From: an uncultured bacterium
GTDB lineage: Bacteria; CAZSTA01
Length of the DNA: 15,093 bases
Direction: 5' to 3'
Assembly: GCA_964609495.1 (NCBI GenBank)
Contig: CAZSTA010000078.1
Coordinates: forward strand, 1-15,093
In this document: positions 418-15,093 of the stretch, piece by piece
Layout: each line of letters starts with the position of its first letter
How positions within the stretch are numbered: position 1 is the first letter of the stretch
Notes under the pieces: model-generated
Told to the model about the DNA's origin: nothing
What the model saw: only the letters and a program-made list of their open reading frames with translations
Database searches by the model: none
Position numbers and translations under genes: made by a program

Positions 418-624
418 GTGGCAGTAACAACCTCAATGGCTCCTTCAGGGTTAGCAGAGGTTCTCGACCGTATCCTGGATAAGGGTATCGTACTCGATGT
501 TTGGGTTAGAGTCTCTCTACTCGGCCTGGAGATCCTTGCTATTGAAGCAAGGGTAGTTCTTGCCGGTGTCGAGACCTACCTGAAGTATGCTGAAGCGGTT
601 GGCTTAACAGCTCCAGCAGCCTAA
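418..624 (+). CDS. gvpA: Major gas vesicle structural protein GvpA
   Basis: GTG start with SD AGGGGGTG 7 nt upstream. The protein contains [52 protein letters not shown], the canonical GvpA core. An ATG at 436 is an alternative start. Confidence 0.95.
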
Positions 625-699: not shown

Positions 700-727
700 G
701 ATGAACATTCATCATGAATGCTTCATC
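700..727 (+). promoter_or_regulatory. Extended hairpin GATGAA-CATTCA-tca-TGAATG-c-TTCATC (a ~12-bp stem) overlapping the RBS region of the next gene.
   Basis: Near-perfect inverted repeat read from sequence. It could sequester the AGGGAG SD at 732-737 and so control translation. Its function is inferred. Confidence 0.35.
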
Positions 728-741
728 AAAAGGGAGAAAAA

Positions 742-1449
742 ATGGAGGACTTAGTTTTAGACCTTATCACCTATTATGGGGATAAAGTCTCAACGGTAGA
801 GGAACTAATCACTACTGCTTATTGTGCTATATTAAACTCGGACGAAAATTTTAATGGACTTGATAGAGAGAGGGAAACTCTGAAGATTAGATTATGCGAA
901 ATGCTGGCTAAAAATTGCTCCTTCCGAAGAAAAGATTTCAATAGTTTGATGGAGAAGATCCTTGCCGATTCTGAGACAAAAAGGGTAGCGATTCAGGAAG
1001 AGCAAAATCAGGTTAAGAAGGCTCTGGGGGAATATTTAGCCCAACAGAAAGAGCTAGCAACCTATCTAAAAGGAGAGCTAATAGGATTTGTACAGGGAAA
1101 CTCAGATAGGGGGCATGTTAAGGCAATAATAAATGAAATTAAGAATATGTATAGGGATAGGGGGGAACAAATTTTTGCCCTCCTACGTAATCTTCAGTTG
1201 TATATAGAGACTTTTCAGAAGGAACAGGAGAAGATAAATCATAAATTGCAGCGGCTTGTAGAGAGAGGTGAATCTTTAAAAATAGAAGACCTAAGACAGC
1301 TTGAGGCGGCTAAAAGTCGCGAGGAGAGAAAGGCTGAAAGAAAGCTAAGGCGGGAGGAAGTGGAAGGACTATTAGCTCATTTCAAGCAGGAACGATGGGA
1401 AAGAAGTTTTTATAGGAAAAATAAGAAATCAAAGAAAGGAGGAGAATAA
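742..1449 (+). CDS. Coiled-coil protein with a GvpC-like repeat unit; a probable gas-vesicle-associated structural or scaffold protein.
   Basis: ATG 742 is preceded by AGGGAG SD; the ORF-track start at 718 lacks an SD. Charged, heptad-rich sequence. The segment DFNSLMEKILADSETKRVAIQEEQNQVKKAL matches the repeat unit of the next ORF. Stop TAA 1447-1449 overlaps the next ATG (ATAATGA). Confidence 0.6.
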   Translation: MEDLVLDLITYYGDKVSTVEELITTAYCAILNSDENFNGLDRERETLKIRLCEMLAKNCSFRRKDFNSLMEKILADSETKRVAIQEEQNQVKKALGEYLAQQKELATYLKGELIGFVQGNSDRGHVKAIINEIKNMYRDRGEQIFALLRNLQLYIETFQKEQEKINHKLQRLVERGESLKIEDLRQLEAAKSREERKAERKLRREEVEGLLAHFKQERWERSFYRKNKKSKKGGE

Positions 1450-2504
1450 TGACTATCGGTCCTGGGATGAGAGAACTTGTGCAGGAAATTACCTCTTCCC
1501 ATAAGGAAAGAACAGAAACAGTTAAGGGAATAAGGGAGGAGGCAAAGCAAATGAGGGAAGAAGCAATGGATTTAATTAGAGATTTTCAAACTACCCGAAG
1601 TAATGAGAGCGTTCAGTTAAAGGAGGAGTTAACAGAGGGAAAAAGAGAAAGGAGCTCTCTTGTTAAAGGGATGCTAGAGGATTTTCAGAATTCAAGGGGA
1701 GAAGAAGCTACTCAAATGCGTAAAGATTTAGCTCAGGGAAGTAGCGAACGTCGTTCTGAAGTTGAGAAATTACAAGAGGATGCCCGGCAAAGCATAAAAG
1801 ATTTTCACGCCCAGCGTAAGGAAGTGGGTACTCAGTTGAGAAAGGATCTTTCTACAAGCACAGCCAATAGAAGATCTGAAGTAAAAGCACTGCTGAGTGA
1901 TGCTCAGGAAATGATAGGGGGATTCCAAAGTTCAAGGGGAGAGGCGAGTTCTGAATTGAGGAAGGAACTTTCTCAGAGCGTATCCAATAACAGGGCTGAG
2001 GTGGAAGACCTCAGGAGAAACGCTAAAGCGTTAGTAAAAGATTTTAATAACACCCGTATAGAGACAGGCAAAGAATTGAAGAATGAACTGACTAAGGATA
2101 AAGCTGAGAGATTATCTGAAGTTAGAAAAATGCGGGATGATTTTCGTAGGATACGCTCGGAAGTGAGAGCAGACTTAAAAGAGGTAGCGGTAGCCTGGCA
2201 GGGATTAACAAAACCTGTAGAAGTAAAGGAAGTTGAAGTAGAAGCTCCTCCCAAAGAAGCAGAGGTTCCTATAGAAGAGGAAACTCCAACGGTAGAAGAA
2301 GTAGTTTCCGAGGAAGGAGAACGGGATTTTGAGTCAGAACTTTTAGCAATTGTCAATCGACATCCCGAAGGAATAACCCTTGTGGAATCAGCTGAGAGAT
2401 TAGGTGTCGCTTCTGTCGTTCTTGGACGAGCCTCTAAGAGTCTCTTGGACAGTGGGAAGATTCGTAAGGAAGATAGATTCTACTTCCCGGTAACAAGCGA
2501 GTAG
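1449..2504 (+). CDS. GvpC-like repeat protein with at least five ~40-aa repeats (DFxxxRxExxxxLRKxLxxxxxxRRSEVxxL) followed by an acidic linker and a C-terminal winged-helix (BirA/MarR-like) domain.
   Basis: Repeats are visible in the translation: DFQTTRSNESVQLKEEL.., DFQNSRGEEATQMRKDL.., DFHAQRKEVGTQLRKDL.., GFQSSRGEASSELRKEL.., DFNNTRIETGKELKNEL... The C-terminus LLAIVNRHPEGITLVESAERLGVASVVLGRASKSLLDSGKIRKEDRFYF fits a winged-HTH pattern. Position directly downstream of gvpA matches where gvpC sits in cyanobacteria and haloarchaea. No direct sequence identity to known GvpC is claimed. Confidence 0.7.
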   Translation: MTIGPGMRELVQEITSSHKERTETVKGIREEAKQMREEAMDLIRDFQTTRSNESVQLKEELTEGKRERSSLVKGMLEDFQNSRGEEATQMRKDLAQGSSERRSEVEKLQEDARQSIKDFHAQRKEVGTQLRKDLSTSTANRRSEVKALLSDAQEMIGGFQSSRGEASSELRKELSQSVSNNRAEVEDLRRNAKALVKDFNNTRIETGKELKNELTKDKAERLSEVRKMRDDFRRIRSEVRADLKEVAVAWQGLTKPVEVKEVEVEAPPKEAEVPIEEETPTVEEVVSEEGERDFESELLAIVNRHPEGITLVESAERLGVASVVLGRASKSLLDSGKIRKEDRFYFPVTSE

Positions 2505-2511
2505 TGATATT

Positions 2512-2913
2512 ATGAAAAGTGAAGCTCTAACAAAAGTAGGAACAGGACGTCAAATTAAAACTGGTCTTGACCTTGCAAGGAGTCAGAGTCAGAGGATAAG
2601 AACTGCCAACTCCCTTTCCCAACCGAAGGAAACTTTTGAATATCTTCAGCACCTAACCGACAGGGATGTGAAAAAGGAACTGCAGAGGGAGAAGATACGT
2701 TTTGCTACTCAGGATGCAGCAGTAGAAAAAGTAAGACGTAGAATTAGTGAATTAAGAGAAAATTTGGCGCGGACTATCAATAGAAACAGAGCTCTTACTG
2801 AATTAAGGCATGAGCTACAAAAGGCCAGATGGGAGGGTAGGGACCCAGTACCGGCGGAGAAAGAAGAGTCAAACCCTGGTCAAAAATTAAATCAGATAGA
2901 AGTGCGATATTAA
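2512..2913 (+). CDS. Hypothetical basic coiled-coil protein of 133 aa.
   Basis: Open frame with a weak RBS. Arg/Lys/Glu-rich helical composition and no recognisable family. Co-oriented within the cluster. Confidence 0.45.
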   Translation: MKSEALTKVGTGRQIKTGLDLARSQSQRIRTANSLSQPKETFEYLQHLTDRDVKKELQREKIRFATQDAAVEKVRRRISELRENLARTINRNRALTELRHELQKARWEGRDPVPAEKEESNPGQKLNQIEVRY

Positions 2914-3152: not shown

Positions 3153-4055
3153 ATGCAGGAAGAGCCCACAGTGCTTACTGCCCAACCAAGTGCTGATTTT
3201 GTAGAGACACCTTATATAAAGGAGCTAACAAGTCGGGCTATCGACTATATCAGAGCTGGTTTTCCCGTACACTTCAGCGGCCCAGCAGGGGTAGGAAAAA
3301 CTACATTAGCTTTACATATGGCTGCTAAGCTGGGCCGCCCGATTATATTAATCGGTGGAGACCACGAATTTAATAGTTCTGATCTAGTTGGTGGACTCTA
3401 CGGCTATCGTAGAAGATATACAAAAGACAATTTTATCCGCTCAGTTCTCAAGACTGATGAGAGTATGACTTCCCATTGGATAGACAATCGTCTCACGGTT
3501 GCATGTCAACGTGGACTTACCCTTATCTATGATGAGTTTACCAGATCACGACCAGAGGCAAATAACGTGTTACTCTCTATATTAGAAGAGAAGCTCCTTC
3601 CCCTGCCTGCCGCTAGAGGAGGAGAGAATTACTTAAGGGTACATCCCGATTTTGCAGCTATATTTACCTCTAATCCTGAAGAGTATGCTGGAGTTTACAA
3701 TAGCCAAGATGCCCTACGTGACCGTATGATAGCTATAGAACTGGGTAATTTTGATGAGGAAACAGAAGTTGCTATTACCCAGGCAAAATCTAAGCTTCCC
3801 TTAGAAGACGCCCAGCGGATCGTTAATCTGGTGAGAAAAGTTAGAGAGGTTAAATCGAACAAGCTTACCCCTACCGTAAGAGCATGCATTATGATGGGAA
3901 AGGTATTGAAGTTAAAGGGTGCATCAGCTTTCAGTTATGACCATACTTTTAAGCAGATCTGTCAGGATATCCTTATGCCTGAGATTCCCAAGGAGGAGAG
4001 AGAAAAAATAAGAGAGGTGATAGAGGATGCTCTGCTACTTAAAGGAGGATCATAG
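3153..4055 (+). CDS. gvpN: Gas vesicle AAA+ ATPase GvpN
   Basis: Strong SD AGGAGGAGGA precedes the start. Walker A FSGPAGVGKTTLALHMAAKLGRP and Walker B LIYDEF are present. Size (300 aa) and motif spacing are typical of GvpN/CbbQ-type AAA_5 proteins. Confidence 0.9.
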   Translation: MQEEPTVLTAQPSADFVETPYIKELTSRAIDYIRAGFPVHFSGPAGVGKTTLALHMAAKLGRPIILIGGDHEFNSSDLVGGLYGYRRRYTKDNFIRSVLKTDESMTSHWIDNRLTVACQRGLTLIYDEFTRSRPEANNVLLSILEEKLLPLPAARGGENYLRVHPDFAAIFTSNPEEYAGVYNSQDALRDRMIAIELGNFDEETEVAITQAKSKLPLEDAQRIVNLVRKVREVKSNKLTPTVRACIMMGKVLKLKGASAFSYDHTFKQICQDILMPEIPKEEREKIREVIEDALLLKGGS

Positions 4056-4429: not shown

Positions 4430-4927
4430 ATGGCTGAAAAGGAAGAGAAGGATAGAATTGAGATAGACTTTTTTGGGGGACTCTTTAAAGAGATTGGGAA
4501 CCTTATTGATCGTGCCTCCAAGATGGGGGAGGAAGGATTTGAAGAAACAGGGGAGATAAAATTCCCCAAGGGAGGTAAGGCAGTATATGGTATTAGTGTA
4601 AGGACTCTAGCAGGTAAGCCAGTAATAGAGAGATTTGGGAATGTGAAGGAGACCTCTAAAGGTCCAGTGGTGGAAGAGGTTAGAGAGCCAATCGTTGATG
4701 TTTTTGACGAAAAAGATCATATCCTTGTTATTGCTGAATTGCCCGGTGTATCGGAAGAGGATATAAAAATCGAAGTTTCTGGAGATGTTTTTAACCTTAC
4801 CGCCTCTAGTAAAGGTAGGAAATATGCTAAGGAGCTCCTTCTGCCGGCTAAAGTAAAAGCAGAGCCCCTTAAGAGTTCCTACCGGAATGGAATTTTAGAA
4901 ATTACATTGGAAAAGATAGAGAGCTAG
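4430..4927 (+). CDS. Hsp20/alpha-crystallin-domain small heat-shock protein (GvpH-like)
   Basis: SD GAGGTGA precedes the start. The alpha-crystallin-domain signature VDVFDEKDHILVIAELPGVSEEDIKIEV...YRNGILEITLEK is present. Haloarchaeal GvpH is Hsp20-family (established knowledge). Confidence 0.85.
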   Translation: MAEKEEKDRIEIDFFGGLFKEIGNLIDRASKMGEEGFEETGEIKFPKGGKAVYGISVRTLAGKPVIERFGNVKETSKGPVVEEVREPIVDVFDEKDHILVIAELPGVSEEDIKIEVSGDVFNLTASSKGRKYAKELLLPAKVKAEPLKSSYRNGILEITLEKIES

Positions 4928-5013: not shown

Positions 5014-7194
5014 ATGGCTATGCGGGCAACCAGGGATGATGTAAAAGCATTAAACCTTCGTGTTGCTGAGGCAAAACCTAAAGATGTTGGAAGGGGGATT
5101 ATACGGATAGACCCCCAGGACTTTGAGAAGATAGGGGTAGATGTAGGAGATATTATTCAAATTGAGGGAAAGAGAAGGACCGTAGCTAAGGTTATGCCCG
5201 CTTATCCTGAAGACCGTGGCAAGTCCATTATCCAGATGGATGGAATTTTACGGAGCAATGCCCAGATCTCTCTTGATGAAAAGGTAACTGTTCAAAAGAT
5301 TAGAAGTTCCCCGGCAGATAAGATAGTAATAAGTCCGTTGACTCTGACAAGATTAAGCCGGGAGAGTGACACTAGATATATCGGCACCCTCCTGGATGGA
5401 TTGCCCCTAATAGAGGGGGATATTATTAGAGCCAATCTATTTGGGACTCGTAGTCAGGATTTTACAGTTCTTAGTACTATCCCAAAGGGGGTAGTGCTGA
5501 TTAACCCAGGAACTATAATTGAAGTGAAAAAAAAGGAAGAGATAGAGGCTAAAGGGTCCAAAATTTCTTACGAAGATATTGGGGGGTTAAGTAAAGAATT
5601 ACAGAAGGTTAGAGAAATGATCGAGCTTCCTCTGAAATACCCTGAGATTTTTGAGCGTTTGGGGATAGACCCTCCAAAGGGAGTATTACTCTATGGACCT
5701 CCTGGATGTGGTAAGACGTTAATTGCCCGTGCTGTAGCGAATGAGACCTCGGCCTATTTTACCCATATTACTGGTCCAGAGATTATGGGGAAATATTATG
5801 GTGAGAGTGAGAGCCGACTGAGAATGGTTTTTGCAAAAGCACAAACTAATACACCTGCTATTATATTCATTGATGAAATCGATGCTATTGCCCCCAAAAG
5901 AGAGGAAATGGGAGGAGAAAAACAGGTAGAGAGGAGAGTAGTTGCTCAGCTGCTCTCTCTAATGGACGGATTAGAGTCACGTGGTAATGTAATCGTTATT
6001 GCTGCAACGAATATTCCTAATTCTATCGATCCTGCTTTAAGAAGACCAGGGAGATTTGATAGGGAAATTGAGATCAGTATCCCTGACCAAAGGGGACGCC
6101 TGGAGATTTTGCAGATTCATACCCGTGGTATGCCTCTAGCTCAGGATGTAGATTTAGCTCAGGATATAGATTTAGAAAAGTTATCCCAGATCACCCATGG
6201 TTTTGTTGGTGCTGATTTGGAAGCGTTATGTCGTGAGGCAGCGATGAATGTATTGAGGAGGATAATGCCGGATATTGATTTTCAATGGTGTGGGATTCCC
6301 TATGAGACTCTATTACAGCTCGAAGTAACAATGGCTGATTTTGGAGAGGCTTTAAAGGAAGTAGAACCTTCAGCTATCAGAGAGGTCTTTATTGAGATTC
6401 CAAATGTGAAATGGGAAGATGTAGGGGGTTTGGGATATATAAAGCAAAAGTTAATGGAAGCTGTAGAATGGCCATCTAAATATTCTATTCTATTTGAGAA
6501 GGCAAAGATAAGACATCCGAAGGGAATTCTCTTTTCTGGACCTCCAGGTACAGGTAAAACACTAGTGGCTAAAGCATTGGCTAATGAAAGTGGGGTTAAT
6601 TTTATCTCAGTTAAAGGTCCTGAATTGATGAGCAAATATATAGGGGAATCAGAAAGAGGGGTAAGAGAGGTGTTTAGGAAGGCAAAACAGGCCAGTCCCT
6701 GTATTATCTTCTTCGATGAATTTGAATCGTTGGTCCCTGAGAGGGGGCCCTCCTCGGATTCTCAGGTTACAGAGAGGGTGATTAGTCAATTCCTTACCGA
6801 GCTCGATGGACTGGAAGAACTGAAAGGTGTACTAGTTCTAGCTGCTACTAATAGAAGAGACCTTATTGATCCTGCTATTTTAAGACCTGGAAGGTTTGAT
6901 TTTATTCTGGGATTTCCACTCCCTGATGAAAGCACAAGGGAAGAGATCTTCAAGGTTCATACGAGAGGAAAACCTCTGGCTCCTGATGTTAGTCTAAAAG
7001 GACTAGCTAGGAAGATGGATGATATGTCCGGTGCAGATATAGAAGCCATCTGTCGAGAAGCTTCTATGATAGCAATTAGAGAAGCTATTAGAGATGAATG
7101 TATGGATAATTTTCGGATCTCTCAAAAGTATTTTGATATGGCTATTGAATGGTTGAAGAGGCAGAAAGGAGAAATGGATGTCTTACCAGGGTAG
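5014..7194 (+). CDS. CDC48/VCP-like AAA+ ATPase with a CDC48_N domain and two AAA domains.
   Basis: The N-domain reads [27 protein letters not shown]. Walker A motifs are GPPGCGKT (D1) and GPPGTGKT (D2); Walker B motifs are IIFIDEID and IIFFDEFE. The protein is 726 aa, with SD AGGAGGT 6 nt upstream. The first 9 codons and RBS are shared with gvpJ. Confidence 0.9.
6139..6174 (+). repeat. In-frame 18-nt tandem duplication (gctcaggatGtagattta / gctcaggatAtagattta) encoding [12 protein letters not shown] in the D1-D2 linker of the CDC48-like gene.
   Basis: Seen directly; one mismatch between copies. Confidence 0.8.
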
Positions 7195-7924
7195 ATATTT
7201 CTATGGGATTATAGAGGAACCACAGTTTAAGAAATTTGAATTTTCTGGAGTGGGAGGGGAAGAGGTATATACAACTAGTTACCAGAATCTTTCCGCAGTT
7301 GTAAGTAATATTGAAGTTGGAGAGATAGATCCTATTAGAAAGAATGTACTTGCCCATACAGTAGTTCAGGATGAGGTTCTAAAAATTTATGATCTTCTTC
7401 CTATGGGCTTTGGAATGATAACCAATAGTGGGGAAGAGGTTATGAAGTTATTAGAGAAAAATTATCAGACGATTCTAAAAGAACTAAACCGACTTAAGGG
7501 TAAGATAGAGGGCGAGGTAAAAATCTTCTGGGACGAGGAGGCTATAATGAGAGAACTTCAGAACGAAAATCCGAAGTTCTCCAAGCTTAAAGCCAAGATA
7601 AGAGAAGCTTCATCTCCCGTTGAAGCGCAGAATCTACTTGCGGAAGCTGGTAGGTTGATAGAGCATATTGCTATGGAATGGAAGACTAAATATGCCGAGC
7701 GTGCCTATAATATCCTTAAAGACCTATCTATCGAGGCTAAGCTAAATGAGCCTTTTGGAGTTAAGAATATCCTAAATGCTTCTTTTCTGCTGGAAAGGAC
7801 TATGGAGAATAAATTTAAAGAAGAAATCTACCGATTAGATAGTGAGTATCAGGATAGACTAGATTTCAAATATGTAGGTCCCTTACCACCCTATAATTTC
7901 GTCAAAGTAAAACTGGAGCTGTAA
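7178..7924 (+). CDS. gvpF: Gas vesicle protein GvpF/GvpL family
   Basis: [10 protein letters not shown]...[17 protein letters not shown]...[26 protein letters not shown] matches the GvpF/L family pattern. The start overlaps the cdc48 3' end by 17 nt. Confidence 0.85.
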
Positions 7925-7925
7925 G

Positions 7926-8165
7926 ATGCTTGGACTCTCACTTTTATATGATATTTTTATAGGTGTTCCCTTTACCCTTGGAGTGAAAATACTGGAGAAA
8001 CTGAGGGATGAGATAGATAAGGAGCGCCTTATAACGGAAGATTCGATCAAGAAGAGGCTTCAGCAGCTACAACTATTGTTACAGGATGGAGAGATAAGTG
8101 AGGAAGAGTATGAAGAGTTAGAAGCTAAACTTATTGAAAGACTAAGAGCGGTAAAGGGAATATAG
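7926..8165 (+). CDS. gvpG: Gas vesicle protein GvpG
   Basis: A 79-aa protein with a hydrophobic N-terminus LLYDIFIGVPFTLGVKILEKL and the C-terminal EISEEEYEELEAKLIERL motif typical of GvpG. Confidence 0.8.
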   Translation: MLGLSLLYDIFIGVPFTLGVKILEKLRDEIDKERLITEDSIKKRLQQLQLLLQDGEISEEEYEELEAKLIERLRAVKGI

Positions 8166-8274: not shown

Positions 8275-8652
8275 ATGGCTATGCAGGCAACCAGGGATGG
8301 ATCTTCTACCCTGGTGGATGTAATTGATCGCGTATTGGATAAAGGGCTTGTTATTAATGCTGATATCTGTGTTTCAGTAGCCGGGGTCGAACTTTTAGGG
8401 ATAAAGGTGAGGGCGGCTTTAGCTTCTTTCGAGACGGCAGCCAAGTATGGGTTAGAATTTCCTAGTGGAACAAATTATGAAACAGCTGCCTGGAAAGAGG
8501 TAAAGGTAGCTAAAGAGGAGTGTCCACAATGTGGAAAGAGGGTTCCTGCCGAAGAACTTATGAATGAAGGCTGTCCATGGTGTGGATGGATGAGTGCAAA
8601 GGCAAAGAAAGCTAAGCCTAAGCTAGCCCCTGAAATATCGGTAGAGGGATAG
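8275..8652 (+). CDS. gvpJ: GvpJ/GvpA-family protein with a C-terminal zinc-ribbon extension.
   Basis: N-terminus MAMQATRDGSSTLVDVIDRVLDKGLVINADICVSVAGVELLGIKVRAALASFETAAKYGL is the GvpA/J core. C-terminus CPQCGKRVPAEELMNEGCPWCGW carries four Cys arranged as CxxC...CxxC. Confidence 0.85.
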   Translation: MAMQATRDGSSTLVDVIDRVLDKGLVINADICVSVAGVELLGIKVRAALASFETAAKYGLEFPSGTNYETAAWKEVKVAKEECPQCGKRVPAEELMNEGCPWCGWMSAKAKKAKPKLAPEISVEG

Positions 8653-8655
8653 AAT

Positions 8656-9012
8656 ATGCCAGAGGATAAGAAAAATAGATTCAAAGGTTTATTGGGGCTT
8701 GATCCTACTTTAGGGGTAGGAGGCAAACTTTTAGACTATGTAGAAGAAGCACATGAAAAAGAAAAGACATTAAATAGTGATTACTATGCCTTTTGCCCAA
8801 AATGCGGTAAGAGACAGGTTAAGGTAAGTTTAATTGAAAATGGATGCTTCCTCTGTGGCTGGAAAGGAAAAGAAGAGGAGATAGAGAAGGCAAAACCAGG
8901 AAACGTAGAAGGAACTTCAGGATATAAAAGTATCTGCCCTAATTGCGATGCTTCTGTCATTACGGAGGAATTTCTGGAAAATGGGTGCTGGAAGTGTGGA
9001 TATAAAAAATGA
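8656..9012 (+). CDS. Small protein carrying two zinc-ribbon modules.
   Basis: The two modules are CPKCGKRQVKVSLIENGCFLCGW and CPNCDASVITEEFLENGCWKCGY. This is the same 'ENGCxxCGW' module as at the GvpJ C-terminus. SD GAGGGA precedes the start. Confidence 0.6.
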   Translation: MPEDKKNRFKGLLGLDPTLGVGGKLLDYVEEAHEKEKTLNSDYYAFCPKCGKRQVKVSLIENGCFLCGWKGKEEEIEKAKPGNVEGTSGYKSICPNCDASVITEEFLENGCWKCGYKK

Positions 9013-9454
9013 GGGTAATTTGACTCAATTTCTTGAAAATCTTGATGAAAAGAGCCGGGCTTTACTCTGGTATCTGTGGTGGCATAGGCATGCCAATATA
9101 TCTGAATTAAGGGAAGTTATAGATGTTTCAAGTGATTTTGAGGTTTTACATAGGTTGAAAGAAGTCATAAATGAGAAAGCCAAGAAGCTCTTAGGTAAGT
9201 TGATAGTAAACTTTGAGCCGTCGAAAATAGATCCTTATACTGGAGAAAAGGTCTTTTTTAGCTGGTGGCTTCTGGATGAGGAAGATAGTACTCTTTTAGG
9301 TGAGAATAAGCAACTGGTTGATATATTCAATGAGAAAGATAATATTACTATAATTGCCCAACTACCTGCTACAGTAGATTTTACCTCTCCAGAAATACAA
9401 TTTAAGAATAGTATATTGAAAATAAAACTAAAGAAGGTAGAGAAGAATGACTGA
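8981..9454 (+). CDS. Degenerate alpha-crystallin (Hsp20-like) paralog with a W-rich N-terminal domain. The start is uncertain: the ORF is open from 8948, ATG 8981 is chosen because GAGGAA lies 9 nt upstream, and it overlaps the previous gene out of frame.
   Basis: The C-terminal half, VDIFNEKDNITIIAQLPATVDFTSPEIQFKNSILKIKLKK, parallels the VDVFDEKDHILVIAELPGV...NGILEITLEK of the 4430 gene. The N-terminal half, LWYLWWHRHANISELREVIDV.., is unassigned. Confidence 0.5.
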   Translation: MGAGSVDIKNEGNLTQFLENLDEKSRALLWYLWWHRHANISELREVIDVSSDFEVLHRLKEVINEKAKKLLGKLIVNFEPSKIDPYTGEKVFFSWWLLDEEDSTLLGENKQLVDIFNEKDNITIIAQLPATVDFTSPEIQFKNSILKIKLKKVEKND

Positions 9455-9929
9455 AAAAGACAAAGATGAAGAAAAAATAGGTGGAGTAACTCAGGGAGTC
9501 CTTCACGGATTAGGGAGAATTATCCCTGGCTTTGAAGAAATTATAAAAGGTTTAGAAAAATCTACCGCTTTCCAGGAAAGATTAAAAGTGGCTAATGAAG
9601 AGATAGAAAAGAGGTTAAAAAAAGCCCCAACAAGGGGTAGGAATAATGTCATTCCACCTGAGAATACACTAAAGGTGAACCAAAACGCTGAGAGAGAATT
9701 GTTGATAGATATATTTGATGAAGGAAGTTATCTAAGGATAATTGCTGAGATGCCAGGTGTGGACGAAAAAGAGATAAAAATTGAAATAAAGGATAACCTA
9801 CTTATACTTTCTACCCCATCTGCTAGGTATAAGTATTACAGAGAGATAGAGCTACCCTGTTTGGTAAAAAAGGAATTTAACTTAGTTTACAAGAATGGTA
9901 TATTAGAGATCAAATTGGAGAAGAGATAA
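9447..9929 (+). CDS. Hsp20/alpha-crystallin-domain protein (second GvpH-like paralog)
   Basis: IDIFDEGSYLRIIAEMPGVDEKEIKIEIKDNLLILSTP...YKNGILEIKLEK is present. ATG 9447 overlaps the upstream stop at 9452-9454. Confidence 0.8.
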   Translation: MTEKDKDEEKIGGVTQGVLHGLGRIIPGFEEIIKGLEKSTAFQERLKVANEEIEKRLKKAPTRGRNNVIPPENTLKVNQNAERELLIDIFDEGSYLRIIAEMPGVDEKEIKIEIKDNLLILSTPSARYKYYREIELPCLVKKEFNLVYKNGILEIKLEKR

Positions 9930-9932
9930 TAA

Positions 9933-10256
9933 ATGGCTATTGATATTGATGCAGATAACCTCAAACAGGGTGTTTTGGGTTTGGTAATCGCCCTTGTGGA
10001 AATTATTAGGGATGCCCTGAAGATTCAAGCATTTAAAAGGGTGGAAAGCGGCATTCTTACCGAGGAAGAATGTGAGAGGTTAGGAGAAGCACTTATGGAT
10101 TTAGATATTGCAATCGAGGAGATAAAGGAAGAGCAGGGGATTACAGAATCTGTTCAGGCTATAAGGGATGGATTAGATGAGATTGTCGATGATGTAGTAG
10201 ATAGAATGGTTAACCCTGAAAGATGGAAAGAAGAGGCGAAAGAAAAAGGAATATAA
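9933..10256 (+). CDS. gvpK: Gas vesicle protein GvpK
   Basis: LGLVIALVEIIRDALKIQAFKRVESGILTEEECERLGEALMDLD matches the GvpK family pattern. Confidence 0.85.
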   Translation: MAIDIDADNLKQGVLGLVIALVEIIRDALKIQAFKRVESGILTEEECERLGEALMDLDIAIEEIKEEQGITESVQAIRDGLDEIVDDVVDRMVNPERWKEEAKEKGI

Positions 10257-10265
10257 GGGATGGAT

Positions 10266-11435
10266 ATGGAAGAGATATTTTATGCTGTGTTGGCTTTACA
10301 TATAGCTGGTAAACCTGTTAATAGAGAGAATATAAAAGCTATCCTTAAAGCTGTAGGGACACCGATCGATGAGAAGGCGCTTGATGCTATGGTACTCTTT
10401 GTTGAGACTTTGGAAGCTGCTCGTAGGGAGAGACAGAGGACTATAGATCCCAGAATCATCAAATTTCTAACAGATGAGCTAGAGCGACAGAAGGTAAAGA
10501 CAGAGCGACTGGAAGCCCTTTTAGATGAACTAACCAAATCTGTTACTCTATCAGAGGCTTATGAGTTTATACCTTCTGAGCGAGATACGGCTGAGGCAGA
10601 AGAAATAACTATTGAAGAAACTGAAAGTATCCCCCGGTATGAGGGAAGATATGTGTACGGAGTGGCTATGGATGGGAGAGAGGTGAATCTTGGTCCGATA
10701 GGAATAGATGGTAATGAGGTCTATACTATACCTTATAGGGGCCTTTCAGTTATTGTGCATAACTGTCCTCCTGAACCATACCAATCTAACGATGATGAAA
10801 TAGTAAAAAACTGGATAAGAACCCATCAGAATGTCCTTGATGTGGCAAAGGAACAATTCGGTACTATTATACCTATGGGCTTTGATATCATACTACAACC
10901 TGATGATGCTACTTCTCCCGATCAAGTTGTAAGAGATTGGCTTAAGGAAGATTATGATAGGCTCTTGACTGTGATGGAAAAGATAGAGGGTAGGGATGAG
11001 TACGGAGTACAGATTTTCTATGATCCAAAGGTGATAGGTGAGCTTATTGCCAAAAATAATGGGGAGCTCGAAAAATTAAAGGAGGAAATAGCTACCAAAT
11101 CGCCAGGGCTTGCCTATATGTATAAACAGAAGATGGAAAAGCTAATAAAGGAAGAAATGGAAAGGCTTGCTGAAGAATGGTTTAGAGATTTCTATAGTAG
11201 GATTAAAAGGCATTGTGATGATATTGTTATAGAGAAAACTAAAAAAGTTGAGAAGGATAAGATAATGCTAATTAATCCCTCCTGTCTTGTAGTCAAAGAG
11301 AATGTTGAGAGCTTAGGTGAAGAGCTAGAAAAGATCAATAGTATAGAAGGATTCTCTGTCCGTTTTACCGGTCCATGGCCTCCATACAGCTTTGTCTCCA
11401 AGCCAACGATAACAACCTCTAATATAGGAGGATAA
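10266..11435 (+). CDS. gvpL: GvpL/GvpF-family protein with an N-terminal domain (~60 aa) resembling the ribosomal stalk P1/P2 (L12e) dimerisation domain. ATG 10260 is an alternative start.
   Basis: The GvpF/L core is RYVYGVAMDG..VYTIPYRGLSVIVHN...NVLDVAKEQFGTIIPMGFDII. The N-terminus MEEIFYAVLALHIAGKPVNRENIKAILKAVGTPIDEKALDAMVLFVETLEAA aligns by eye with archaeal P1, (M)EYIYAALLLHSAGKEI.EENIKAVLEAAG..VDE.R.KALVAAL. The AGGGA SD sits 5 nt before ATG 10266. Confidence 0.8.
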   Translation: MEEIFYAVLALHIAGKPVNRENIKAILKAVGTPIDEKALDAMVLFVETLEAARRERQRTIDPRIIKFLTDELERQKVKTERLEALLDELTKSVTLSEAYEFIPSERDTAEAEEITIEETESIPRYEGRYVYGVAMDGREVNLGPIGIDGNEVYTIPYRGLSVIVHNCPPEPYQSNDDEIVKNWIRTHQNVLDVAKEQFGTIIPMGFDIILQPDDATSPDQVVRDWLKEDYDRLLTVMEKIEGRDEYGVQIFYDPKVIGELIAKNNGELEKLKEEIATKSPGLAYMYKQKMEKLIKEEMERLAEEWFRDFYSRIKRHCDDIVIEKTKKVEKDKIMLINPSCLVVKENVESLGEELEKINSIEGFSVRFTGPWPPYSFVSKPTITTSNIGG

Positions 11436-11525: not shown

Positions 11526-12617
11526 ATGGAACCTACTAGAGATACACATGCTACATTAGTAGACCTCTTGGATAGAATTCTAGATAAAGGCTTAATACTT
11601 AATGCGGATCTAATTATCCATATAGCTGGCATCCCTCTTTTGGGAGTTAACCTAAAGGCTTGCCTTGCTGGAATGGAAACGATGCTAAAGTATGGTATCT
11701 GGCAAGACTGGGATGAGGCACAGAGGGTGATTGCCACTGAAGAAGAGAGGAAGAAGAAAAAAGTTCCCTTAGCTCCACAGGAAGATGTCTTCCTAAAGAT
11801 ATTTGCCTCCCTGTGGTACAGTAAAGGTATCTATCATACCCGGAGACCGGGGCATCTATACATCACCGATAGAAGGATATTCTTATTTAGAAAGGAACCA
11901 GCTGAAGTACTATTTCATTGTATGTATAAGGAGATAAAAGGAATCAGTACTGAAAGAAAGGCAAATATTACTGGCAAAGAGACGGATTATCTCTATCTAT
12001 GGCTTAACTCAGGAGAGATCGTTAAGTTGCATCCGACAGATGCTCAGCTTGTTAGAGAGACAATAGAAGAAAGAATGAAATTACTGGGGCTAGAGTTGAA
12101 GAAAGATATCCCCCTTCCTATACTCGATGAGGTAGCAATAAAGTTTTTATCTGAGGAAGAAGAAATTATCCATTCGGGAAAGATATCTTATCTAGTGGCT
12201 GAATCAAGACCGGGGGGTATTACCACCGAGGTATGGAAGCCGGGACATTTATATCTGACTGATAGGAGGTTAGTCTGGTGGTACGATTTCGATGGCAGGA
12301 TTGCTTCTGAATTACCTCTTGAGAAAATTCTGGGAGTTGAAATAAAAAGAAAAGATTTGGGTGATATGTTAAAGAATAAATCTGTTTTAGATTTGGCTTA
12401 TAAGAATGGTAGTAATAGAATTGCCTCTTTCTCTAGTAGTACGGAGGGACTAAATGAGTGGGAAAAAATAATAGGTGAGGTTATGATAGAATACGACAAG
12501 ACAGAAGAGTGCCCCAGGTGTGGCAGAAGGGCACCTATAGATAAGCTGCTTAAAGAAGGCTGTTCAATCTGTGGCTGGGTAAGCCCCAGGCTTAGAAAAA
12601 AGGAGATAGAAGCTTAA
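11526..12617 (+). CDS. Fusion protein combining an N-terminal GvpA/J/M-family domain, two GRAM/PH-like repeats and a C-terminal zinc ribbon.
   Basis: N-terminus [57 protein letters not shown] is the GvpA-family core. The two repeats are ..RRPGHLYITDRRIFLF.. and ..WKPGHLYLTDRRLVWWY.., matching the GRAM/bPH 'G.LYLT..RL.F' signature. C-terminus is CPRCGRRAPIDKLLKEGCSICGW. Confidence 0.8.
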   Translation: MEPTRDTHATLVDLLDRILDKGLILNADLIIHIAGIPLLGVNLKACLAGMETMLKYGIWQDWDEAQRVIATEEERKKKKVPLAPQEDVFLKIFASLWYSKGIYHTRRPGHLYITDRRIFLFRKEPAEVLFHCMYKEIKGISTERKANITGKETDYLYLWLNSGEIVKLHPTDAQLVRETIEERMKLLGLELKKDIPLPILDEVAIKFLSEEEEIIHSGKISYLVAESRPGGITTEVWKPGHLYLTDRRLVWWYDFDGRIASELPLEKILGVEIKRKDLGDMLKNKSVLDLAYKNGSNRIASFSSSTEGLNEWEKIIGEVMIEYDKTEECPRCGRRAPIDKLLKEGCSICGWVSPRLRKKEIEA

Positions 12618-12875
12618 ATGGATATTGATGAAATAATTAGAAAAACCCAAGAAACTTTTACTAGACTTACCAAGATACCTATCGATGGAATTACTGGTAT
12701 ATCAAAGACTGACCAGGGGTGGATGGTAGCACTAGAAGCACTGGAGAGAAGAGCCATACCTGATACTATGGATATACTAGGACTTTATGAGGTTCGCCTC
12801 GACAATGATGGGAATCTTCTTAATTTTGAGAGAAAGAAACTCCGTAAACGCGGTGAAACAGAGGGGGGAGAGTAG
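12618..12875 (+). CDS. gvpO: Gas vesicle protein GvpO
   Basis: DQGWMVALEALERRAIPDTMDILGLYEVRLDNDGNLLNFERKKLRKRG matches the GvpO signature (GW.v.vE..E....PDT.d.L..Y.v.lD.dG.L....R...Y.RG). ATG overlaps the upstream stop (TAAATG). Confidence 0.8.
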   Translation: MDIDEIIRKTQETFTRLTKIPIDGITGISKTDQGWMVALEALERRAIPDTMDILGLYEVRLDNDGNLLNFERKKLRKRGETEGGE

Positions 12876-12876
12876 A

Positions 12877-13110
12877 ATGAGTGCATGGAATAAATGTCCC
12901 AGTTGTGGAATCACTGTCAGTGGGATTGCCGATTACTGTCCTAATTGTGGAGAACCCTGGACTATAGAATGTCAAAATTGCGGAATAACTTGGCGATTCT
13001 GGGAAAATTATAAATTTTGTCCCAATTGTGGAGCTAAGGTAGAAAAGCGTGGTGTCACCAGAGGAAAGCAGAAGGTAGGACCAGGGGTTGGAAAACCAAA
13101 GGTTATTTAA
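12877..13110 (+). CDS. Double zinc-ribbon protein with four CxxCG pairs.
   Basis: MSAWNKCPSCG..YCPNCGEPWTIECQNCG..FCPNCGAKV. ATG 12877 is one nt after the gvpO stop, with a G-rich SD. The ORF-track start at 12787 would overlap gvpO and is unlikely. Confidence 0.6.
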   Translation: MSAWNKCPSCGITVSGIADYCPNCGEPWTIECQNCGITWRFWENYKFCPNCGAKVEKRGVTRGKQKVGPGVGKPKVI

Positions 13111-13147
13111 CCCAAGCTCCGCATTTTAGGAACGCATCACAATTTGT

Positions 13148-13416
13148 GGCTCTTTGAGGGAAAGTGTGAAGGGAAGTTAAGCACATTCGAGGAGGATATG
13201 TTGTCGGAAATTATCAAAGTTTCGATATCCGTATCCTCTCTGTTTGATGAGCTTAATCTCGTTATTGATCCCCTCGGCTAAACCATTGTTTATCCTCTCT
13301 ATAAAGTAATTCAAACTCTCCTCCCACCAAGAGCGAAGAGTATTTACGAATTTGAATAAAGTTCTTACCGCTTGCTCTACCTTATGACACCAAGAGGAGA
13401 AAAATCTCTCTTCGCT
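13148..13416 (-). mobile_element. Remnant of an ISL3-family insertion sequence: the 3' (C-terminal) transposase fragment on the minus strand (13177-13416) plus its terminal inverted repeat reading GGCTCTTTGAGGGAAAGTGTGAAGG inward from 13148. The other end is absent.
   Basis: Minus-strand translation gives SWWEESLNYFIERINNGLAEGINNEIKLIKQRGYGYRNFDNFRQHILLECA*. I recognise the 'EG.NNKIK.IKR.AYGYRNF.NFR.RIL' tail as ISL3 (DDE_Tnp_ISL3) transposases. Upstream frames are broken by stops. The GGCTCTT terminus matches my recollection of ISL3 inverted repeats. No reverse-complement inverted-repeat copy is found at higher coordinates. Confidence 0.6.
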
Positions 13417-13480
13417 TTATCCCATCCCTTGATCTTCTCAAAGATAGGGCGAAATTCCTCCTTCAAGAAATGAGTTCTAA

Positions 13481-13693
13481 GCAAATAGATTTAGTTCTTC
13501 ATATATTCCTAAGGAGGAGATAACCGATCTAGCGGGAGATATGTCCTTAGAAGAGAGATTAGAATTATCTGAGAAAAAGATAATCGAGGGCGCTCTAAAA
13601 GAGGTGGGAGGAAATCAAAGCCGGGCTGCCAAGATGTTAGGTATATCCCGATATAAATTGCGTTATCGAATGCAGAAGTATGATCTACTATAG
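13481..13693 (+). pseudogene. C-terminal fragment (Fis-type HTH_8) of a sigma-54-dependent NtrC-family transcriptional activator.
   Basis: ..MSLEERLELSEKKIIEGALKEVGGNQSRAAKMLGISRYKLRYRMQKYDLL* matches the C-terminal HTH of NtrC/NifA-type activators. No AAA sigma-54 domain is found upstream in any frame. ATG 13541 has a GGGAG motif immediately upstream, so a 50-aa stand-alone product is possible but unlikely. Confidence 0.55.
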
Positions 13694-13759
13694 TAGGTTG
13701 TGTGTTTTTACACTATATGTGGGAAATCACACACATATTATAATCCATTACGTGAAGTT

Positions 13760-13786
13760 CCCCGAGGCTTGCCTCGGGGTTTTCTT
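13760..13786 (+). terminator. Rho-independent terminator: a 9-bp perfect GC stem CCCCGAGGC-tt-GCCTCGGGG followed by TTTTCTT.
   Basis: Read directly; the T-run follows on the plus strand. A second hairpin ATATGTG..CACATAT lies at 13715-13738. Confidence 0.75.
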
Positions 13787-14080
13787 GGCATGATTATATA
13801 ACCTAGCTATCCTCTCGATATGTTTCCCTAATGGTGCAGGAGAGTATCATCTATTACCATAAAACCTTCCTTAGTGTTCACTCCCCTTCTTGCTAAAGAA
13901 GACATCTCTGAAGAAAGATTGCTTTTGTTACCACTACTGAGGAAAATTCTACTATGGATATCACTTCTTACTTCCTCTTCCTCACATCTCCCCCATCTGT
14001 GTTAATTTCCATAAATGTATTTAATATCACTTTTCTATTTCAAGGCATACATCTTTAAGTGATAGTTATATTGATTTTGC

Positions 14081-14213
14081 AGAAACTTCCCCTCGGTACT
14101 TTGCAGGATATATAATATGATATAATATTAACATTTTCTATCGTGTTGCCTTTGCAATATAACAATCGCAGAGGAACTCTTTTGATTAAAGGTATGATAT
14201 TTGCTCTTTATAG
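14081..14213 (+). repeat. Right copy of the flank direct repeat. It carries the same extended -10 TGATATAAT at 14118-14126.
   Basis: See the 1-157 entry. Confidence 0.85.
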
Positions 14214-14335
14214 ATGTTAGACGACTCAAGTACTACCTAAGTGCATATATCTACTATTTTAACTTCTGATATCTAAAAGCAGGGAATATTTCTCCCCTTA
14301 AAGTTAGGATATAGTGTTAAGGAGGGGCAGATGTA

Positions 14336-14467
14336 ATGGTTCCAGAGAAGCTTTATAAGATCGGAGAAGTTGTGAGGTACAGTAGTTTTTACAGGCGAGT
14401 CATTCATAATTATACCCAGATCGGGTTGATCAGATCATCTTTATCAGCCCAGCGGGATAAATTTTAG
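14336..14467 (+). CDS. Tiny (43 aa) MerR-superfamily/HTH_17-like DNA-binding ORF immediately downstream of the right repeat copy; possibly truncated.
   Basis: MVPEKLYKIGEVVRYSSFYRRVIHNYTQIGLIRSSLSAQRDKF. The IGE(V/L)..(pause)..R.I..Y..IG pattern resembles MerR/Xis-type HTH. AGGAGGGG SD lies at 14320-14327. Its arrangement after the repeat mirrors the 214-417 gene after the left repeat. Confidence 0.4.
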   Translation: MVPEKLYKIGEVVRYSSFYRRVIHNYTQIGLIRSSLSAQRDKF

Positions 14468-14472
14468 ATGAG

Positions 14473-14673
14473 ATGCTCGCTTTTTTTGATCTTTGTGCTG
14501 TGGACTACATAATCTTTCCTTTTCGCAGTAAGGGGGTGTTAGATCGAGTTAGAGCTGCTTTGCGATCCAGCCGACTGATGAGAGAATTACGAAGACGCAA
14601 TCAGGAACTTGTTATTTTGAAGGGAATATCTGATATAGCTAATCGATCTTCAAGTTTAGGTGAGCTATTATAG
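14473..14673 (+). pseudogene. Short ORF whose C-terminal half resembles the coiled-coil leader into a GAF domain (ELRRRNQELVILKGISDIANRSSSLGELL*). Probable truncated N-terminus of a GAF-containing sensor or sigma-54 activator.
   Basis: Pattern recognition only. The motif 'L..EIS.AL.SSLDL.ELL' is common at GAF-domain starts in NifA/FhlA-type regulators and histidine kinases. The frame stops after 66 aa and downstream frames are broken. Confidence 0.25.
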
Positions 14674-15015
14674 AGATCACATTGCGATTCTGCACTAAAC
14701 CCTAATAATGAATTAGTGTTGGAAATAAATATTTTCAAGTTCGCTTATAGTGAGTGCTTTCTACTTTCAGATCTTTGCATTTAGCTACGGAGAGAGCTTC
14801 TAAAAGGCAGTTATAATGTGATTCAATATTTGGAAATCTTGAAGTAAATGGGGGAGCATAAAGATTAAGGAATCGCAGTCCAATTATATCAGTCAGTTCA
14901 GTCATCCAAATTGTAAGAAGTTGAATCGCTATTTTTCTCTCTATAAGCTAATCATAGACCTATTGTTTCCAAGATTATGTGACATCTATAAATATAAGGA
15001 AAGGGGGGAAAGAAA

Positions 15016-15093
15016 ATGGCAAATGCCCAGATTCTAGCTGTTGAAGATGAGAAAATCGTAGCTGAGAACATACGAGACAGGTTGAAAAGTTTG
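15016..15093 (+). CDS. Response-regulator receiver domain at its 5' end, truncated by the window edge.
   Basis: MANAQILAVEDEKIVAENIRDRLKSL shows the typical 'ILVVEDE' receiver start. AAGGGGGG SD lies 7 nt upstream. Confidence 0.6.
   Translation, partial: MANAQILAVEDEKIVAENIRDRLKSL

Follow-up and report, generated by a model that had tools for sequence, protein, structure and literature searches.

It is still an open question how gas vesicles are nucleated. Both GvpJ and GvpM/S are essential homologues of the shell protein and are suspected to act as seeds at the cone tips. In haloarchaea and Bacillus megaterium, GvpJ and GvpM/GvpS consist of a GvpA-type core and a ‘YGLEFP(S/T)GT’ linker followed by a short or acidic tail free of cysteine, and not a single cysteine occurs in haloarchaeal GvpJ, GvpM, GvpH, GvpG or GvpI. 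For GvpJ and GvpS, a place at the cone tips has been proposed (PMC11445434). GvpJ and GvpM are prone to aggregate, GvpH stops the aggregation of GvpM, and the accessory Gvps associate in a complex (PMC7688916). A zinc-finger motif has been described at the C-terminus of haloarchaeal GvpC, a gas-vesicle surface protein (PMC9501494, PMC9372576), and this C-terminal domain associates with itself and binds GvpN, GvpO, GvpF, GvpI, GvpL and, most strongly, the Hsp20-like GvpH (PMC9372576). Here, we analysed a stretch of 15,093 nucleotides from an uncultured bacterium (contig CAZSTA010000078.1; the window) that holds a single gas-vesicle (gvp) cluster with all genes on the + strand, and in which a preliminary description had noticed a small zinc-ribbon module recurring on several proteins.

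The window has the GvpA-type core, the linker and the cluster position between gvpG/H and gvpK/L in common with the classical GvpJ and GvpM. It differs from them in that its GvpJ ends in a Cys4 ribbon and a basic tail, while its GvpM-like protein adds two GRAM/PH-like domains and a ribbon to the classical layout. Halobacterium salinarum GvpC, which is situated on the outside of the gas vesicle, likewise has a small Cys-based metal motif at its C-terminus, but the carriers here are GvpJ and GvpM, and the ligands are Cys4 instead of CxxC...HxxxH. A full-text literature search (gas vesicle with zinc ribbon, CXXC or zinc-binding) turned up no paper that describes Cys4 ribbons on Gvp proteins. The earlier claim that zinc ribbons on gas-vesicle shell proteins are undescribed therefore stands in so far as none was found, and is qualified by the precedent of the GvpC zinc finger, which is of the C2H2 type and unrelated in sequence. 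It also needs rewording in one respect, as GvpJ and GvpM are minor GvpA paralogues and not the main shell protein. What is known is the fold class and the carrier families; new are the dedicated module itself, the architectures in which it occurs and its restriction to gvp clusters.

Four copies of a Cys4 ribbon in one gas-vesicle cluster

The module is a 23-residue Cys4 mini-domain, C-P-x-C-x13-C-x-x-C-G-[WY], with a signature made up of the x13 spacer, L-x-[EN]-G-C and C-G-[WY]. It occurs four times in the window (Table 1), as the tail of the GvpJ-like protein, twice in a free Cys-rich protein and as the tail of the protein encoded from position 11526, each time in frame within a conserved + strand open reading frame (ORF). 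All four copies named in the preliminary description are present, at coordinates that were right within a few bases. The spacing C-x2-C-x13-C-x2-C followed by G-[WY] is identical in 4/4 copies, each of which offers four ligands arranged as two CxxC pairs, and the same spacing with invariant cysteines recurs in about 150 distinct homologue copies. Across six frames the motif was counted four times, compared with a mean of 0.005 and a maximum of 1 in 200 shuffles of the window. A module hidden Markov model (HMM) whose training sequences all came from other genomes was run over all six frames; it yielded the copy scores in Table 1 and matched just these four places, the next best reaching 13.9 bits. 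The copies are pairwise only 48–64% identical in DNA (35–57% in protein) and are therefore old paralogues, not products of a recent duplication.

The GvpJ-like carrier (8275–8652) is composed of a GvpA-fold core, the conserved linker YGLEFPSGTNYETAAW, the ribbon and a basic tail. It matches Pfam Gas_vesicle (PF00741) with 60.3 bits (cut-off 25), and its predicted core matches the solved GvpA chains 7r1c and 8gbs in a Foldseek search of the PDB. The best NCBIfam model, halo_gas_GvpJ, gave 98.6 bits, below its haloarchaea-specific cut-off of 125, so the protein is not an equivalog of haloarchaeal GvpJ; we assign it as a putative GvpJ-like minor GvpA paralogue. The ribbon is present in 120/120 of the best homologues (the best 120 of 3942 GvpA/J-like matches; 65–91% identity, all but one at least 75%), with CPxC...CPWC kept in each of them, across Chloroflexota, Thermodesulfobacteriota, Desulfotomaculum and others. 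The GvpJ ribbon is a core feature, and the commonest and most conserved carrier type. The AlphaFold2 (AF2) model of the protein has a mean predicted local distance difference test score (pLDDT) of 63 overall and about 78–80 over the module. Outside the window, a GvpJ with two tandem ribbons also exists (P0118).

The second tailed carrier (11526–12617) matches Pfam Gas_vesicle (PF00741) with 53.6 bits, GRAM with 27.0 (cut-off 23.6) and bPH_3 with 24.8 bits, and its best NCBIfam model is halo_gas_GvpM, with 90.7 bits over residues 1–67 (below the cut-off of 109). These matches point to a GvpM-like minor GvpA paralogue as its core. The first GRAM/PH-like domain lies above the Pfam cut-off, the second is internally similar to it, and the ribbon follows; the two (GLUE-like) domains thus sit between the shell-type core and the ribbon. 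What had been described simply as a fusion protein is indeed a ribbon-tailed Gvp fusion, the identity of which can be refined to GvpM-like plus two GRAM/PH-like domains, an architecture for which no description was found in the literature. It has 653 homologues at E ≤ 1e-20, in bacteria and archaea, and the x13 ribbon is kept in 99/120 of the best of these and lost or broken in the rest.

The free protein (8656–9012) starts with a stretch that contains an invariant ‘DPTLG’ motif, followed by its two ribbons, and a Pfam scan found no known domain in it. It has 28 homologues (48–62% identity), and those with available DNA are all encoded directly 3' of a gvpJ of 117–130 amino acids that ends in CPQC...CPWCGW. 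In its AF2 model the mean pLDDT is 68, rising to about 84 in copy 2 and about 93 in copy 3. A GvpG-like helix was considered for the ‘DPTLG...EEA’ N-terminus but found no support (hhalign probability 1.1%, E = 0.048, with the expected segment aligned).

A distinct double zinc ribbon had also been proposed to close the cluster (12877–13110). It is real, with scores above the Pfam cut-offs of 27.3 for DZR (31.3 bits) and 25 for Zn_Ribbon_1 (33.2 bits), and judged by its sequence it is a different, generic ribbon. As a fifth copy of the module it was discarded, with 13.9–14.7 bits on the module HMM and similarity to a single knuckle only. The gene is kept 3' of gvpO in L003, L004, L017 and several metagenome loci.

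A ribbon family essentially confined to gas-vesicle clusters

A 31-position module profile was compared with 1.84 billion representative proteins without a word index (E ≤ 1e-3), which gave 143 matches, about 125 of them with the full module. At least 55 of the 143 are fused to gas-vesicle domains, namely a GvpJ-type core (17), a GvpM-type core with GRAM (13), GRAM fragments (21), an Hsp20 domain (3) or GvpG (1); a further 19 are free proteins that carry the module twice or three times, 51 are single-module small proteins or fragments, and 18 are false positives, i.e., generic multi-knuckle proteins without the full module. Pfam confirmed the GvpG fusion (P0196; GvpG 68.4 bits) and ribbon–HSP20 fusions (P0280, P0281). 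The module stands at the C-terminus of GvpJ and GvpM-like/GRAM proteins and at the N-terminus of Hsp20-like proteins, and free proteins carry one to three copies. It has been shuffled onto several assembly proteins (GvpJ, GvpM-like/GRAM, Hsp20-like and GvpG) in addition to the free proteins. Hundreds of module proteins are present in databases, named only ‘gas vesicle protein’ or given generic Zn-ribbon COG labels. Outside the window, the combination with an Hsp20 domain was seen in P0257, P0280 and P0281 (L021 7486–7935), and one to three modules stand behind a new N-terminal domain, ‘LSPEQ..LA.QIL.QDE...YQIRA’, in P0149 and P0159 (L019 731–1306).

Wherever the genomic surroundings could be read, they were those of a gvp cluster. 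All 22 mapped loci are gvp clusters except for the short L022 contig, and even distant matches with two modules (P0150), three modules (P0149), one module in 58 amino acids (P0175) or a module with Hsp20 (P0280) are encoded just 3' of gvpJ in gvp clusters. The neighbours of P0236 (490 amino acids, one module, no Pfam match) on its short contig were uninformative. The order conserved among the 22 loci is gvpG, gvpJ with ribbon, free ribbon, ACD-like, sometimes Hsp20, gvpK and gvpL, continued 3' of gvpL by GvpM-GRAM, which has a ribbon in some loci and none in others, then by gvpO and in some cases by the DZR gene. The archaeal order is gvpJ with ribbon, GvpM-GRAM with ribbon and a two-ribbon protein, and in the archaeal loci L010–L015 (metagenome-assembled genomes of Methanophagales, Methanotrichaceae and Methanomicrobia) these three ribbon-bearing genes are adjacent.

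Named bacterial sources are Chloroflexota/Dehalococcoidia, Thermodesulfobacteriota, Syntrophobacterales, Desulfotomaculum, Firmicutes, Atribacteria, Coprothermobacterota and Ca. Hakubella, with Clostridium sp. ZS2-4 as the one isolate, and named archaeal sources are Methanothrix/Methanotrichaceae, Methanophagales (ANME-1) and Ca. Methanolliviera. To our knowledge, all named hosts are anaerobes. Those GvpJ proteins with a ribbon that are at least 75% identical to that of the window are named after members of several bacterial phyla (Chloroflexota, Thermodesulfobacteriota, Desulfotomaculum), and archaeal GvpM-GRAM homologues are just 50–56% identical to the window's. The cross-phylum identity could mean that the cluster has spread horizontally, or simply that the GvpA-type core is under strong constraint.

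The module is set apart from known ribbons by its own signature and its gvp-restricted spread. The Pfam families DZR (PF12773), Zn_ribbon_3 (PF13248), Zn_Ribbon_1 (PF13240) and DUF7560 likewise have two CxxC knuckles, the first CPxCG, within about 25 residues, yet no zinc-ribbon model of Pfam or NCBIfam reached its cut-off on the module-bearing window proteins (13–21 bits versus 25–32). These proteins gave 14.0 and 20.2 bits with DZR (cut-off 27.3), 13.3 with Zn_ribbon_3 (27), 15.6 with Zn_Ribbon_1 (25), and 13.3 and 19.7 with DUF7560 (PF24441; gathering cut-off 27). DUF7560 is the commonest sub-threshold Pfam match (18/23 free ribbon proteins at E ≤ 1e-3), and relatives with two or three copies reach its cut-off only when partial matches are added up, no single stretch being significant. 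When one carrier type was left out at a time, an HMM of the GvpJ tails scored the GvpM tail with 36.6 bits and each free copy with 22.5 bits, and an HMM of the free copies scored the GvpJ tail with 24.3 bits. Searched against PDB sequences, the module profile found only partial CPxCGK matches (C2H2 fingers, Nop10, L33 and similar), the PDB ribbons reaching at most about 18 bits per domain over one knuckle only.

In the AF2 models the module is laid out as a strand, the CPxCG knuckle, a strand, a short helix and the GCxxCG knuckle, with a second hairpin not clearly formed, and each copy is predicted to fold independently as a small metal ribbon, the metal being assumed to be Zn. A Foldseek search of both models against the PDB returned no significant ribbon match; only the GvpA core was matched. 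The best local superposition was with the Cys4 ribbon at the N-terminus of AccD (2f9i_B, 2.0 Å; 8uz2_D, 1.4 Å; 32 columns each), which has a like layout of knuckle, strand, short helix and knuckle in an unrelated protein context; these superpositions are not significant (Foldseek E about 1–3), and Pfam Zn_ribbon_ACC (PF17848) has no match on the window proteins at E ≤ 0.1. The rubredoxin-like Fe(Cys)4 domain of rubrerythrin, which is prevalent in anaerobes, has knuckles of the CxxCG and CPxCG kinds, separated by about 12 residues. It differs from the module in that the rubrerythrin-like NCBIfam model rubre_like_arch remains below its cut-off (17 bits versus 32) and that the window cluster is without a redox context.

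Taken together, these results define the module as a distinct and narrow family, essentially restricted to gvp clusters of bacteria and archaea. The preliminary description had suggested a dedicated family and asked for a search with a module HMM for gvp linkage; with 143 matches in 1.84 billion proteins, most of them recognisable Gvp fusions, and readable contexts that are all gvp, that suggestion is borne out, whereas the alternative of a generic Pfam ribbon that is ubiquitous without gvp linkage is not.

How the free ribbon protein relates to its neighbours was assessed in an unbiased metagenome scan seeded by GvpJ with ribbon alone, which gave 80 loci, 68 with enough downstream sequence. 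A free ribbon protein was encoded within the next two genes in 26/68 and absent in 42/68, so the GvpJ ribbon is independent of the free protein, which is an optional component; as an obligatory partner of the GvpJ ribbon it was ruled out. Its link to Hsp20-like proteins is closer. An Hsp20-type gene (ACD-like or canonical Hsp20) follows the free ribbon gene in 23/23 evaluable cases, compared with an ACD gene in 26/42 loci without a free ribbon gene (Fisher p = 5e-4, uncorrected for phylogeny). In the window, the start of the ACD-like gene (8981–9454), whose product has a weak NCBIfam Hsp20 match, overlaps the two-ribbon gene by 32 nt (8981–9012), inside the codons of the last ribbon, and this start/stop overlap is conserved in relatives. 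Overlap, adjacency and the ribbon–ACD fusions therefore tie the free ribbon protein to Hsp20-like proteins, and the product of 8981–9454 is likely its functional partner. That product also has a conserved N-terminal domain (‘LWWHRHA...ELRE’) that matched no Pfam family and that we presume to be winged-helix-like.

Candidate roles of the ribbon

The explanation that we consider best, and to which as a whole we give an even chance, is that the gvp-confined Cys4 ribbon serves as a docking handle in vesicle assembly. The beta-hairpin of a GvpA-type core would lie on the gas face, so that the Lys/Glu-rich ribbon and the basic tail after helix 2 would project into the cytoplasm, where the ribbon would most likely be a handle for protein–protein docking. 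It would mark the two seed/cone-tip paralogues, GvpJ and GvpM, and link them to Hsp20/GvpH-like chaperones and free ribbon adaptors during vesicle nucleation, with the ATPases of the cluster possibly also joined via ribbons. The free two-ribbon protein would be an optional adaptor that acts in concert with the Hsp20-like gene, the start of which overlaps the adaptor's stop codon. That the same handle is found on seed paralogues, Hsp20/GvpH-like proteins, GvpG and tandem adaptors is typical of a docking module of one pathway, and docking is better supported by this context than the metal-dependent assembly that had been raised beside it. The best functional analogy, and an analogy only, would be the zinc-finger domain of GvpC.

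Several points weigh against a docking role. It is drawn from gene context and analogy, and the GvpC motif (C341-x2-C344...H-x3-H) is of the C2H2 type and scores -2.6 bits on the module HMM. The conserved residues (four Cys, Pro, Gly, Leu and Trp) could all be structural. The ribbon is lost in about a sixth of the GvpM-GRAM homologues (best 120). Among the 42 loci without a free ribbon, 16 have no ACD gene either in the stretch from gvpJ to gvpK, so that neither protein can be an obligatory partner of the GvpJ ribbon. The Fisher test on the ACD genes overstates independence because the loci are phylogenetically related.

It is rather unlikely, on our estimate, that the ribbon is a structural or solubility cap without any partner, in which a small, rigid and highly charged fold keeps the C-terminus of GvpJ and GvpM stable or soluble, or sterically limits their placement in the shell. 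The fold itself would call for just those residues that are invariant, the GvpJ ribbon is found in many clusters without a free ribbon protein or an adjacent ACD gene, and haloarchaeal GvpJ has an acidic, Cys-free tail at the same position. GvpJ and GvpM are, in addition, known to aggregate (PMC7688916). However, a cap would leave unexplained both the free proteins with one to three ribbons and the ribbons on soluble Hsp20-like and GvpG proteins, and it does not account for type-specific conservation at non-structural positions, for example PW in the knuckle of GvpJ or the SAKAK and SPRLK tails.

We regard as improbable a redox or metal switch, in which labile Zn or a rubredoxin-like Fe(Cys)4 site would sense oxidants or metal supply and gate or abort nucleation in strict anaerobes. 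As far as we know, the named hosts are all anaerobes, and the CPxCG knuckles with a spacer of about 12–13 residues recall the rubredoxin-like domain of rubrerythrin; the aerobic model systems are Cys-free in GvpJ, GvpM, GvpH and GvpG. The anaerobe bias may, however, just follow the lineage of the cluster type and its horizontal spread, the weak NCBIfam rubrerythrin-like match (17 bits) is far under its cut-off of 32 bits, the role of Cys4 ribbons is in most cases a purely structural one, and the cluster encodes no redox partner.

Binding of nucleic acid, especially by the free two-copy protein, for autoregulation (as with the AccD ribbon) or for coupling translation to assembly, has a still smaller chance of being correct. 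Such binding is common among ribbons, Lys/Arg-rich residues follow the first knuckle and recur in the tail, the AccD N-terminal ribbon is the best local structural match (2f9i_B, 8uz2_D), and JGI assigns RNA-binding ribbon COGs to several module proteins; but these COG names are generic ribbon matches only, the Foldseek E-values (≥0.4) are not significant, Zn_ribbon_ACC misses the window copies, and the location on shell-embedded proteins and chaperones points to a role in the vesicle. The notion that there is no dedicated family but only ordinary look-alike ribbons, acquired independently, is largely refuted and very improbable, given that although short Cys-dominated ribbons are easily overrated and DUF7560, DZR and TackOD1 are sub-threshold Pfam matches, the x13 spacing is identical across all types and 99 GvpM tails, cross-type HMM scores are 20–37 bits versus at most 18 bits per domain for PDB ribbons, and the 143 matches are nearly all gvp-linked.

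The docking handle could also be part of something wider, a modular ‘ribbon code’ in which type-specific Cys4 handles (on GvpJ, GvpM-GRAM, GvpG and Hsp20-like proteins) and free tandem adaptors wire the nucleation complex, bring chaperones and ATPases to the seed at the cone tip, and confer thiol-based sensitivity to oxygen or redox state in strict anaerobes. We hold this to be a long shot; if true, it would be a new regulatory or assembly principle for gas vesicles, not found in the aerobic model systems. At minimum, the module is a new domain family that annotation pipelines have overlooked, and a large, previously unremarked branch of gvp clusters places one Cys4 handle on exactly the GvpJ and GvpM paralogues. 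As sites that can be mutated and tagged, the ribbons lend themselves to mapping of the nucleation complex, with Hsp20-like proteins pointed to as partners, and they offer compact handles for engineering gas vesicles as acoustic reporters.

Organisation of the cluster and further features

Table 1. Ribbon copies and genes of the gvp cluster in the window; copy scores are those of the module HMM.
Feature	Position	Strand	Score or remark
Ribbon copy 1, tail of GvpJ-like protein, CPQCGKRVPAEELMNEGCPWCGW (CPQC-x13-CPWCGW)	8521–8589	+	60.8 bits
Ribbon copy 2, free protein copy a, CPKCGKRQVKVSLIENGCFLCGW	8794–8862	+	45.0 bits
Ribbon copy 3, free protein copy b, CPNCDASVITEEFLENGCWKCGY, ends CGY	8935–9003	+	51.0 bits
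Ribbon copy 4, tail of 11526 protein, CPRCGRRAPIDKLLKEGCSICGW	12510–12578	+	36.6 bits
gvpA	418–624	+	
Three coiled-coil/repeat ORFs	718–2913	+	
gvpN	3153–4055	+	
Hsp20	4430–4927	+	
CDC48-type double AAA+ ATPase	5014–7194	+	
gvpF	7178–7924	+	
gvpG, immediately 5' of ribbon-bearing gvpJ	7926–8165	+	Pfam GvpG 45.4 bits
GvpJ-like Gas_vesicle protein, 125 aa	8275–8652	+	
Free two-ribbon Cys-rich protein, 118 aa	8656–9012	+	
Hsp20 (ACD)-like protein	8981–9454	+	
Second Hsp20-family protein	9447–9929	+	Pfam HSP20 21.1 bits (cut-off 20.8)
gvpK	9933–10256	+	Pfam GvpK 65.9 bits
gvpL, with gvpK the downstream end of the conserved block	10260–11435	+	Pfam GvpL_GvpF 208.3 bits
Putative GvpM-like core, two GRAM/PH-like domains and C-terminal ribbon, 363 aa	11526–12617	+	
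gvpO	12618–12875	+	
Separate double zinc ribbon protein, last of cluster	12877–13110	+	Pfam DZR, Zn_Ribbon_1

The GvpL-like protein is extended at its N-terminus by about 125 amino acids (10260–10634). The extension is also present in L025, L026 and L037, and its first 50 or so residues resemble the N-terminal dimerisation domain of archaeal P1/aL12 (PDB 3a1y_A, E 1.3e-6, 31.8 bits). A ribosomal-stalk-like domain, as this similarity suggests, would be an unexpected finding on a gas-vesicle assembly protein.

Downstream of gvpA, the ORF at 1449–2504 contains about six tandem repeats of 40 amino acids (BLOSUM autocorrelation 0.92 at offset 40 versus a shuffle maximum of 0.11) and has no Pfam match; the repeat length is the same as that of haloarchaeal GvpC. 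The trio to which this ORF belongs (718–1449, 1449–2504 and 2512–2913) is kept 3' of gvpA in L003, L005 and L017, and because of this conserved position it is likely to represent a GvpC analogue.

The CDC48-type ATPase (5014–7194) is full-length, with CDC48_N, CDC48_2 and two AAA domains, and overlaps gvpF within the operon; no paper connecting CDC48 to gvp clusters was found in the literature. ArsA-like ATPases, Hsp70 and a DnaJ-fused GvpF take the place of CDC48 in related clusters (L018, L021). Rfam and tandem-repeat scans of the window gave nothing relevant to the ribbon module; the latter detected an 18-bp tandem duplication at 6137–6175. The right-hand 2 kb or so (13111–15093) contains no intact gene. 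An ORF fragment on the - strand (13177–13314) resembles what we take to be the C-terminus of an insertion sequence transposase, and at 13541–13693 solely the Fis-type helix-turn-helix of a sigma-54 activator is left (HTH_8, 57.3 bits).

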